Source: a virus (Duplodnaviria; Heunggongvirae; Uroviricota; Caudoviricetes). Taken from it: a stretch of DNA of 64,000 bases. The notes under the pieces are model-generated. The model saw nothing but the letters and a program-made list of their open reading frames with translations, did no database searches and was not told the DNA's origin. Of the stretch, positions 42,467 through 43,639 are shown piece by piece (positions within the stretch are counted from its first letter, which is position 1; each line of letters opens with the position of its first letter). The stretch lies in IMG/VR virus record IMGVR_UViG_3300029305_002776. One strand, 5' to 3'. The position numbers and the translations under genes were made by a program.

Positions 42467-43639
42467 TCATCGCATGGATAGTGTTTCATTTAACCTCACT
42501 CCTTCTCTTGTTTCATTACAAGAAAGATAGCTTGTTGCAAAATCTTTTTGATTAAGCAACTCTTTATTGCAAAACTCATTTACATGAGTAATTGCCAATG
42601 ATACTTTATAGCCGCTATAGCCAATAGAGGTAATATCTTTTTTAATTCTATTTACAAGCTCCGATTGGTTTAAATGTCCATATCTAAGGCTCCCCTGATA
42701 AGGATTTGGCACATTTGTTTTATCTTCCATTGAGCTGTTGATTTCAGATTTGTCACACTCCTCATCAAATCTACCTGCGCCGTGTCTTGTCATATATGTT
42801 CTGGTTACATAGCATACTTCCACATTTGCGTCTGGCATTCTCTTATCAATGATTTCATGAGGGTTTTCAATTCCAGTATTGCTAGGCGTTGTGTGAACAC
42901 CATATTTGTTTTGATGCTGGTCAAGCAACAATCCTTGCCCATTTTCAAAGATTACATTTTGATATCGGTTTAAGATTTCACTATATCCCCATGTTATATG
43001 GTTACACATGAACTTGATATCATCAATGAACCTGTAAATCATTGCATCAGAGTAAAAAATCTTTGACCATTCAGCATCTAACACAAGAGCCTCTTCTTTG
43101 ATTTTCTTGCTGAAATAAGTGTCACGCAATTCCTTTAGCCAAGTGAATTTAATTTCTTCTCCAAATTTGTTGAACTTCCACAACTGATATGTCCAGTCAG
43201 TTCCATATCTCAGAATGGTTTCCCAAATGCCCATACCACAAGATCCATGGCGCATATCTCCACGGCTATCTTCAATTATCTGATTCAACATCATGTCAAA
43301 CGGCGTTGACCATCTACAGTTCCAATGAGCATACACTTTAGGGGTAAACCCCATGGCTTCCAGTTCTTCATACTCTTTTCTGAAAGTCATGGGGTTTAGA
43401 ATGTACTTTTCACTTAGATAGGTATCTGCCCCCGCAAAGGTTCCAGATCCAAAGTGATGAAACACATGCCTAATGCCATCAGGAGTAACCACAGTGTGTC
43501 CTCGCTGAGCACCGCCGTTGCATAAAGCTACGATACAAGATTCGTTTCTCTTAATTGCCTCGGCACAAAAGTAATCAGTCATAAGACCTTTTCCTTCATC
43601 TCCGAAATTTGCACCAATTACAACTTTAACATTAGGCAT
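42467..43639 (-). CDS. adenylosuccinate synthetase family enzyme (PurA homologue; PurZ-type candidate)
   Basis: P-loop GANFGDEGKGLMTDY (cf. PurA GTQWGDEGKGKIVD), GGAQRGHTV (cf. GGHNAGHT), ENGQGLLLDQHQNKYGVHTTPSNT (cf. [23 protein letters not shown]), TRTYMTRHGAGRF; 390 aa, shorter than cellular PurA. Confidence 0.8.
   Translation of the reverse strand: MPNVKVVIGANFGDEGKGLMTDYFCAEAIKRNESCIVALCNGGAQRGHTVVTPDGIRHVFHHFGSGTFAGADTYLSEKYILNPMTFRKEYEELEAMGFTPKVYAHWNCRWSTPFDMMLNQIIEDSRGDMRHGSCGMGIWETILRYGTDWTYQLWKFNKFGEEIKFTWLKELRDTYFSKKIKEEALVLDAEWSKIFYSDAMIYRFIDDIKFMCNHITWGYSEILNRYQNVIFENGQGLLLDQHQNKYGVHTTPSNTGIENPHEIIDKRMPDANVEVCYVTRTYMTRHGAGRFDEECDKSEINSSMEDKTNVPNPYQGSLRYGHLNQSELVNRIKKDITSIGYSGYKVSLAITHVNEFCNKELLNQKDFATSYLSCNETREGVRLNETLSMR

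Follow-up and report, generated by a model that had tools for sequence, protein, structure and literature searches.

A phage-borne branch of the PurA superfamily, paired with a von Willebrand A-domain gene, that appears to be neither ordinary PurA nor PurZ

Does a phage gene that resembles adenylosuccinate synthetase (PurA) supply ordinary adenylosuccinate, does it act as PurZ in the replacement of adenine by 2-aminoadenine (the Z base), or does it serve a reaction of another kind? The question is raised by a gene of 390 codons in a 64,000-nucleotide stretch of DNA, hereafter the window, of the tailed-phage record IMGVR_UViG_3300029305_002776 (Caudoviricetes). A preliminary description of the gene had put forward PurZ as the leading candidate and another PurA paralogue of open function as the alternative. 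The alternative holds, while the candidate PurZ fails because of the Asp in the P-loop, the score against the PurZ hidden Markov model (HMM) and the absence of a cluster of Z-pathway genes. We consider it fairly probable that the protein represents a third phage-borne PurA branch with a specificity of its own, which would retain activation at O6 and amination and would work with a von Willebrand A (vWA) protein encoded just upstream.

The genes and signals of the cassette are the following:

44525..45160, minus strand: third cassette gene, lineage-specific, encoding about 208-211 residues with a C-terminal tail rich in Gly, Met and Phe and then strongly acidic
43653..44522, minus strand: vWA partner gene, 289 residues, PHROG 2971 (202 bits), vWA/integrin I-domain fold
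43647..43653, minus strand: Shine-Dalgarno sequence AAGGAGG of the PurA-like gene, read directly from the sequence, overlapping the TAA stop codon of the vWA gene
42467..43639, minus strand: PurA-like open reading frame (ORF), ATG start, 390 residues, PHROG 1211 clade
PurA-like protein, motifs of the first half: GDEGKG at 13-18, GHT at 47-49, HGSCGMGIWE at 131-140, ENGQGLLLD at 232-240
PurA-like protein, motifs of the second half: TPSNTG at 251-256, TRHGAG at 284-289, TNVPNPYQG at 308-316, R319, THVNE at 351-355

The position, the strand and the ATG of the reading frame are exactly those first described, and the ATG lies 7 nt past the strong consensus Shine-Dalgarno sequence. With a gap of just 13 nt between the vWA and PurA-like genes, and with the Shine-Dalgarno sequence reaching into the stop codon of the former, the pair has the appearance of an operon.

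Membership of the PurA superfamily is secure and far beyond chance. Pfam PF00709 matches the protein with 104.8 bits (cutoff 27; E=5.9e-30), over profile positions 1-286 of 416 only; PHROG 1211 matches with 216 bits (E=1.5e-63), and a phmmer search of the PDB reaches bacterial PurA with E down to 9e-12. The AlphaFold2 (AF2) model (pLDDT 85, pTM 0.87) retrieves through Foldseek both PurA and PurZ crystal structures over the full length of the model (E=3e-18 to 1e-12), the best match to PurA structures having E=3e-18 and TM about 0.65. Pfam, PHROG and structural comparison all agree with the family assignment of the preliminary description, and its motifs GDEGKG (residues 13-18), GHTV (47-50) and TRHGAGRF (284-291) are present. 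The middle motif actually reads QGLLLDQHQNKYGVHTTPSNTG, in which 'QG..LD' and 'SN' fit what had been described, whereas the E. coli form 'HG.YP.VTSSN' does not. The protein is also shorter than cellular PurA, as had been remarked: about 60 C-terminal residues of E. coli PurA are without counterpart, and the HHalign alignment stops at residue 338 of 432.

Is the protein a PurZ? In phages, the catalytic Asp13 of PurA is replaced by Ser in 100% of 147 PurZ/PurZ0 proteins (PMC12884076 section 24), and the reverse mutation S14D of phiVC8 PurZ abolishes substrate selectivity (PMC12884076 section 24; bioRxiv 10.1101/2025.10.22.683976). We aligned the window protein with validated or annotated reference sequences, namely S-2L PurZ, phiVC8 PurZ, a Gordonia PurZ0-type protein and E. 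coli PurA. The S-2L, phiVC8 and Gordonia proteins have Ser in the P-loop column. The window protein has Asp there (Asp14), and so do its relatives without exception: 55 of 55 diverse clade members, 26-73% identical to the window protein, on which all conservation counts given below are based, and all 383 of the P-loops that could be read in a set of 420 unique sequences. Against the curated PurZ model NF038379 the protein reaches only 32.9 bits (cutoff 300), over residues 4-98. Moreover, a profile of the clade matches bacterial PurA structures with E ~1e-37 but the structures of Gordonia PurZ0 (7VF6), phiVC8 PurZ (6FM1) and S-2L PurZ (7ODX) with 2e-6, 1e-5 and 2e-3, respectively, and the latter matches are confined to the N-terminal P-loop region. 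HHalign gives the same picture: 102 columns and E=2e-7 for S-2L PurZ, 329 columns, E=2.5e-27 and a probability of 99.75% for E. coli PurA. Phe12 and Thr308, the latter kept in 52 of 55 members, align with PurZ residues by MAFFT, which in so divergent a region is suggestive only. In the adenine-stacking and ATP pocket of PurZ (F295 and Y298 of VpPurZ; N305, F306 and Q308 of S-2L PurZ) the sole match is Asn354 with N305; the position of S-2L F306 is occupied by Glu355, and those of Q308 and Y298 fall in an alignment gap.

The companion genes of a Z genome were also sought; such clusters combine DatZ (HD) with MazZ/DUF550, or carry DutZ/DmtZ/DUF5664, and usually have DpoZ/PrimPol as well. Pfam scans of the 83 window ORFs found no HD/DatZ, MazG, DUF550, PolA, Dut or DUF5664 match, in line with the earlier remark that neither DatZ nor MazG was to be seen; the window covers 64 kb of a genome that its relatives, on contigs of 90-215 kb, suggest to be larger. 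When the window and two related loci were probed by tblastn with S-2L DatZ, MazZ and PrimPol, only noise came back (E>1), the MazZ probe being of limited use as it matches S-2L only in the whole phage collection. DatZ homologues of that collection lie in Z-type phages of roughly 40-55 kb; none was found in Mycobacterium or Rhizobium phages (212 of the 233 clade-carrying records), nor in the large Vibrio phages listed. A search with S-2L PurZ finds Arthrobacter, phiVC8-like Vibrio, Microbacterium, Acinetobacter and Gordonia phages, so that the phages found by the window protein and those found by S-2L PurZ differ both in organism and in record size. PurZ identity was rejected on these four grounds: Asp instead of Ser in the P-loop, a PurZ HMM score far under its cutoff, the profile distance and the absence of a Z-cluster.

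Is the protein then an ordinary PurA? The NCBIfam PurA equivalog models (TIGR00184, NF002223 and others; cutoffs 368-700) all fail, the best score being 83 bits against a cutoff of 402 and that of TIGR00184 74.2 against 395.55. For the comparison of residues we used E. coli PurA (PDB 1ADE) and Helicobacter pylori adenylosuccinate synthetase (PDB 8QWA), and MAFFT, HMMER and HHalign agreed on the alignment register. The catalytic residues D13, K16, H41 and Q224 of E. coli PurA correspond to D14, K17, H48 and Q235 of the window protein, each present in 55 of 55 clade members, and T239 corresponds to T251, kept in 54 of 55. As the P-loop G13-D14-E-G-K17-G, His48, Gln235 and Thr251 are strictly conserved, the catalytic core for phosphorylation of the 6-oxo group and its displacement by an amine is intact.

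The pockets around this core are different. In E. coli PurA, R131, T300 and T301 belong to the L-aspartate site, as mutagenesis has indicated, and D333 and S414 to the guanine-specific GTP pocket. The other contact roles were taken from the H. pylori structure (PMC11571797 Table 3) and from S-2L PurZ (PMC8342488). R303 and R305 are L-aspartate site contacts and K331 (H. pylori Lys322) belongs to the guanine pocket (PMC11571797); the phosphate and ribose of inosine monophosphate (IMP) are contacted by N38, T129, T239, R143', V273 and R303 (PMC11571797 Table 3), V273 touching ribose O2'/O3' and R303 both the 2'-OH and aspartate (PMC11571797, PMC8342488). In the clade N38 becomes Gln45, T129 becomes Cys134 and V273 an invariant histidine (His286), while a conserved arginine, Arg144, sits 4 residues off the R143 column. 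In the aspartate loop T300 is replaced by an aromatic residue (Tyr314 in the window protein) and T301 by an invariant glutamine (Gln315); R131 corresponds to Met136 at a position that varies across the clade, R303 to a gap or a variable residue (Ser317 in the window protein) and R305 to Leu318 or possibly Arg319. In the guanine pocket K331 becomes His352 (51 of 55), D333 becomes Asn354 in the window protein (Asn in 31 and Asp in 24 of 55 members), and S414 is possibly kept as Ser373. The PurA contacts to the ribose 2'-OH, L-aspartate and guanine are thus swapped for other, clade-conserved residues. The preliminary description had named an active site identical to that of IMP-specific PurA, together with normal adenine in virion DNA, as what would speak against PurZ; the pocket is instead unlike PurA and PurZ alike. 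Judged from the sequence comparison, that is from the scores, the replaced contacts and the missing C-terminal residues, the window protein is not an ordinary PurA. The loss of R131, T300, T301 and R303 does not exclude aspartate as a substrate, because PurZ, without equivalents of the same residues, still uses L-aspartate (PMC8342488).

A further clue comes from the partner gene. Its product has no Pfam match, and its sequence-level match to solved vWA proteins is marginal (E=0.057), so that the assignment rests on Foldseek, in which the AF2 model (pLDDT 67, pTM 0.75) retrieves integrin I-domains and other von Willebrand A domains with probability 1.0. The protein carries a motif like the metal ion-dependent adhesion site (MIDAS), D73-x-T75-x-S77 ... 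T178-x-G-D181-E, and a conserved loop QFESDIR...GGGGGN..ESY at 124-152. Its N-terminus, M-G-x-G-x-W, is predicted to be disordered by AF2 and is as conserved as the MIDAS motif among 145 distinct sequences (29-72% identical to the window protein), Gly2 being present in 98% of them. Homologues 27-33% identical to the partner occur in Rhizobium phage RHph_Y65 (gp018), Vibrio phage Va1 (Va1_038) and Mycobacterium phage Sebata (gp261); in the Rhizobium and Vibrio phages they lie just upstream of the PurA-like gene, and in Sebata one small ORF intervenes. The gene order is thus kept in these phages at 27-37% identity.

With locally built HMMs we surveyed 80 IMG/VR loci and 80 genome loci. A vWA gene is found upstream and on the same strand in 157 of the 160 loci, or 157 of the 158 informative ones. 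Among the IMG/VR loci it is directly upstream in 79 of 80, essentially abutting in 72 and separated by an insertion in 7; among the genome loci it is directly upstream in 78 of 80, and both exceptions are cut at the contig edge. The remaining IMG/VR locus, L067, has full flanks and no vWA gene detected by the HMM. The seven insertions (L018, L040, L042, L048, L050, L053 and L078), of about 0.8-1.1 kb between the vWA and PurA-like genes, are possibly a mobile homing-endonuclease gene. When the ORFs of 163 loci were clustered, the PurA-like and vWA genes were the sole universally shared ones, and across 50,697 phage records the partner occurs in Mycobacterium (201), Rhizobium (10), Vibrio (6) and Mycolicibacterium (1) phages.

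One partner gene is itself interrupted. In Mycobacterium phage Sauce, gp259 (locus L172, 4185-5972), annotated as 'HNH endonuclease', is the vWA partner with a 255-residue intein-like element, which begins with Cys and ends in ...SSN followed by Cys, four residues before the GDE of the MIDAS. Sebata gp261 lacks this insert and is otherwise 99% identical, and the 'HNH endonuclease' annotation looks misleading. Inteins tend to sit in functionally critical sites, and an insertion near the MIDAS fits this tendency.

How far does the family extend? In an exhaustive HMMER comparison with 1.84 billion cluster representatives (50% identity clusters) the window protein matched 2,315 clusters at E<=1e-30; cellular PurA proteins of solved structure reach about 1e-11 with the same query. 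The clade has the signature GDEGKG…TRHG…TN..N..QG…TH.[ND], of which the window protein has all motifs; among the 420 unique sequences GD.GKG is found in 414, TRHG in 415, TN..N..QG in 406 and TH.[ND] in 386. Near relatives are found on IMG/VR contigs of about 90-215 kb and in genomes of Lachnospiraceae, Ruminococcus, Eubacterium, Desulfosporosinus and Clostridium; some of the latter sequences are isolate contigs that reach 1.96 Mb, and these relatives are therefore prophages. The 50,697 phage genomes hold PurA-like records in Mycobacterium (202), Rhizobium (10), Vibrio (6, large phages) and Mycolicibacterium (1) phages, a distribution that agrees with the partner's, and the search with the window protein also matched a human faecal phage. 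Members are therefore known from Clostridia prophages, cluster C mycobacteriophages and large Rhizobium and Vibrio phages. Longer members show no informative domain fusions, PF00709 being the only domain.

The preliminary description had assumed that the phage PurA homologues known so far are PurZ enzymes. This does not agree with a published census of 481 phage PF00709 proteins, which assigns 147 to PurZ/PurZ0 and no more than a handful to the cellular PurA group (PMC12884076); of the roughly 330 left without assignment, a large share plausibly belongs to the present family. Its mycobacteriophage members are labelled 'PurA-like' by SEA-PHAGES and '2-aminooxy adenylosuccinate synthetase' by RefSeq and PHROG, and the latter name stands on phrog_1211 members such as NC_070967 gp019 and NC_041993 gp263. 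As the PurA-type Asp is kept and the Z-cluster genes are absent, this label is probably a systematic over-annotation across hundreds of phage genomes; likewise, since the gene is not a PurZ, PurZ labels in databases are probably wrong.

The third gene of the cassette ends 2 nt upstream of the vWA gene and has no family match. The Gly/Met-rich gene is present in 119 of 163 related loci, the window included, while in 27 other loci, including that of the mycobacteriophage 'Ser/Thr kinase', the same slot holds a protein with a J-domain and a kinase-like part, possibly a sign of a link to chaperones (Hsp70). In 64 loci, the window not being one of them, the PurA-like gene is followed by a Nudix/NrtR-type gene. 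A polynucleotide kinase gene lies near the PurA-like/vWA pair in cluster C mycobacteriophages, and Thg1, RlaP and Nudix genes lie near it in relatives of the window phage. The pair thus keeps company with accessory genes of RNA repair and nucleotide conflict, which is a hint, though no proof, as to its role. PADLOC defence models matched none of the PurA-like, vWA and third genes, and a scan for promoters and terminators around the cassette gave counts not above those of shuffled sequence.

Taking these observations together, we propose that the PurA-like enzyme would phosphorylate the O6 of a 6-oxopurine nucleotide at the expense of a nucleoside triphosphate (NTP) and would then aminate it, with a specificity for the sugar, the amine and/or the NTP altered with respect to both PurA and PurZ. 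The vWA protein would be needed as a complex partner, a regulator or a presenter of the substrate, and the pair would form an auxiliary module of purine-nucleotide conversion, not a Z-genome pathway, during infection by large tRNA-rich phages. A bolder version, which we hold to be very unlikely, is a two-component ligase of a new kind that would join the activated purine nucleotide to an amine other than free aspartate. Candidates for this amine would be ammonia, a neutral amino compound or, most exotically, the alpha-amine of the N-terminal glycine of the partner (M-G-x-G-x-W); the product may be an adenine nucleotide substituted at N6 or an adduct in which nucleotide and protein are linked through N6, and its use may lie in phage-host conflict or in the maintenance of RNA or the nucleotide pool. 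Several points weigh against the proposed third branch with its own specificity. The altered loop is no proof of a new amine donor, because PurZ manages with L-aspartate in spite of lacking those residues, and Arg319 may substitute for Arg305. The residue mapping comes from sequence and profile alignments and not from a superposition with ligands. Part of the synteny is inherited, as most of the 160 loci come from related Clostridia phages, though probably not all of it, since four deep lineages share the vWA pairing. No role of vWA domains alongside PurA-type enzymes is known, and the part assigned to the partner is therefore one that we infer purely from synteny. Literature searches gave no biochemical or genetic data on any member and nothing functional on the clade or on a link between PurA and vWA proteins; the gene table of Vi01-like phages carries both annotations with nothing connecting them, and these phages are essentially absent among the matches.

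Three other explanations have to be set beside the third-branch proposal. The gene could encode an ordinary auxiliary adenylosuccinate synthetase, which converts IMP, L-aspartate and an NTP to adenylosuccinate, from which host PurB completes AMP; the phage would gain adenine nucleotides, perhaps through an enzyme insensitive to host regulation. Intact Asp14, His48, Lys17 and Gln235 agree with this, as do a clade much nearer bacterial PurA than PurZ, the use of aspartate by PurZ without equivalents of R131, T300, T301 and R303 (PMC8342488), the possible replacement of Arg305 by Arg319 and the AT-rich composition of the window (about 37-40% GC). We nevertheless regard it as unlikely, given scores below every curated PurA cutoff (83 bits against 402), the replacement of ribose, aspartate-loop and guanine-pocket residues by the clade-conserved His286, Gln315 and His352, the absence of about 60 C-terminal residues and a strict coupling to a vWA gene that is unparalleled in purine biosynthesis. 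In addition, a few phage homologues do lie within the true PurA group (PMC12884076), so that a borrowed PurA need not diverge so far.

The pairing with a MIDAS-type vWA protein is what best recommends a non-metabolic NTPase, a PurA-derived P-loop protein that would drive its partner in the manner of the MoxR AAA+/vWA chaperone pairs, for example in the assembly or remodelling of a protein complex. The J-domain/kinase-like (27 loci) or Gly/Met-rich neighbour hints at chaperone or protein-level action, and vWA proteins are often paired with NTPases (PMC7824862, section 3.4.5). However, residues needed solely for purine-monophosphate chemistry (Asp14, His48, Gln235 and Thr251) stand at 55/55 or 54/55, and near-invariance at 26-73% identity is hard to square with a pure NTPase switch; we hold this reading to be very unlikely. 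A PurZ-type activity, possibly convergent, in which dGMP and Asp give N6-succino-2-amino-dAMP and 2-aminoadenine replaces adenine, is highly improbable. It can appeal to the label '2-aminooxy adenylosuccinate synthetase' that PHROG 1211 and RefSeq give to members, to the loss of the Arg303 2'-OH contact as in PurZ and to Asn354 at the place of S-2L N305. It is contradicted by Asp14 instead of Ser, with Asp in 383 of 383 clade P-loops, by the PurZ HMM (32.9 bits against 300) and a profile likeness limited to the P-loop region, by a window without DatZ, MazG/DUF550, PolA, Dut and DUF5664, by the lack of DatZ in clade-carrying Mycobacterium or Rhizobium phages, by phage sets that differ from those of S-2L PurZ in organism and record size, and by the many carriers that are prophages in Clostridia chromosomes.

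The distinction matters for annotation, as hundreds of large phage genomes could be miscounted as candidate Z-genome phages through the PurZ-type label: all cluster C mycobacteriophages, gut Clostridia prophages and Rhizobium and Vibrio myoviruses. A simple rule, Asp or Ser in the P-loop together with a vWA neighbour, would separate them. In the published census, PurA and PurZ together leave roughly two thirds of the phage homologues (about 330 of 481) unaccounted for; for the present family, its strict association with a gene for a MIDAS-type vWA protein offers a concrete, testable handle on function. If the rebuilt amine, ribose and NTP pockets do mean a new reaction, it would be the third chemistry of a textbook family after PurA and PurZ, with possible uses in nucleotide biosynthesis or in DNA and RNA modification. 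The family itself was already known; its strict association with a vWA gene and the comparison of its residues with those of both PurA and PurZ are new, to judge by the searchable literature.

The window is part of a large, tRNA-rich and probably temperate phage of Clostridia, the temperate lifestyle being suggested by relatives that sit within Clostridia chromosomes. Its other features of interest are:

1382-2272, minus strand: SPFH/Band_7 protein (91 bits)
2808-2911, minus strand: 'drum' RNA (RF02958), 57.2 bits against a gathering score of 43, abutting tRNA-Ser
2808-9536, minus strand: tRNA array, 18 tRNA genes by ARAGORN
6807-6874, minus strand: an extra tRNA match, by Rfam only
7783-9450, minus strand: TROVE (Ro60-like) protein of 555 residues, by domain match
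18933-19856, minus strand: MrpR-like tyrosine recombinase, adjoining a second recombinase
19944-20921, minus strand: tyrosine recombinase of the Phage_integrase family (109 bits)
36328-37590, minus strand: reverse transcriptase RT_UG27, 420 residues, matched end to end by PADLOC (664.9 bits)
38976-39920: peptidase-like gene, overlapping by 4 nt the 3' end of the CxxC gene
39917-41458, minus strand: CxxC-rich protein of 513 residues, whose C-terminal third is full of CxxC pairs, with many predicted zinc ribbons
47512-47823, minus strand: stand-alone cREC ('cyclic-phosphate processing receiver') protein (64 bits)

The TROVE gene lies within the tRNA array, between a block of 17 genes and the tRNA-Leu at 9460-9536. 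Cellular Ro60 binds Y RNAs, and for this reason a Y-RNA-like or tRNA-like phage partner could be encoded near it. An alternative genetic code or pseudogenes in the ORF-poor 2.3-7.8 kb were considered and rejected, as this region is the tRNA array. TROVE, cREC and Band_7 proteins are gene kinds described for phage RNA-repair and NAD/nucleotide conflict systems (PMC7824862). RT_UG27, about 5 kb from the PurA-like gene, belongs to a defence-associated class; a diversity-generating retroelement was set aside in view of the full-length UG27 match, template and variable repeats not having been searched. The 513-residue CxxC protein has no match in Pfam, PHROG or PADLOC, and homing-endonuclease domains are also present in the window. 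At about 55600-56400 the gene orientation turns from almost all minus strand to plus and the GC skew changes sign, with the minimum of the cumulative skew near 56 kb; this switch fits a boundary of divergent transcription or a replication origin or terminus.

Among known systems, cellular PurA is the nearest relative of the window protein by profile (E=2.5e-27, 329 columns). The two share the fold over the full length of the window protein, the Asp of the GDEGKG P-loop, the His of GHT, Gln224 (Gln235) and Thr239 (Thr251), but the clade is phage- or prophage-borne and always co-encoded with a vWA protein. PurZ and PurZ0 are likewise phage-encoded PurA-superfamily proteins of reduced size; the window protein agrees with them in the lost Arg303 2'-OH contact, in a Phe or Tyr preceding the Gly of the P-loop, in the Thr of the T262/T273 position and in its Asn at D333. 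They differ in the Ser of the P-loop and in their neighbours DatZ, MazZ, DUF550, DpoZ, DutZ and DmtZ, which the clade lacks, and are carried by sipho- and podoviruses of about 40-80 kb, in contrast with clade carriers that measure about 90-215 kb and are in many cases prophages. An archaeal PurA may have given rise to PurZ (PMC8342488), whereas the clade is nearest to bacterial-type PurA, which points to separate branches.

The 'PurA-like' proteins of cluster C mycobacteriophages (Bxz1, Sebata gp263, Sauce gp260) belong to the same family at 25-27% identity and share with the window D14, H286, Q315, H352 and the upstream vWA gene. They are longer (442 residues) and more PurA-like (Pfam 189 bits), with Asp at the D333 position, and a Ser/Thr-kinase-like gene stands upstream of their vWA gene, where the window has the Gly/Met-rich gene. 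The pair also resembles the MoxR AAA+/vWA and TerY-type modules, in which a MIDAS-type vWA gene lies beside that of an NTP-binding protein. The set of PurA-like, vWA and kinase-like genes may resemble the TerY-type triads, vWA-kinase modules, in that a protein-kinase-like gene adjoins in 27 loci, although no PP2C phosphatase was seen with the PurA-like/vWA pair. Compared with the MoxR/vWA pairs, the NTP-binding partner is here not an AAA+ ATPase but an enzyme of the PurA superfamily with an intact purine site.

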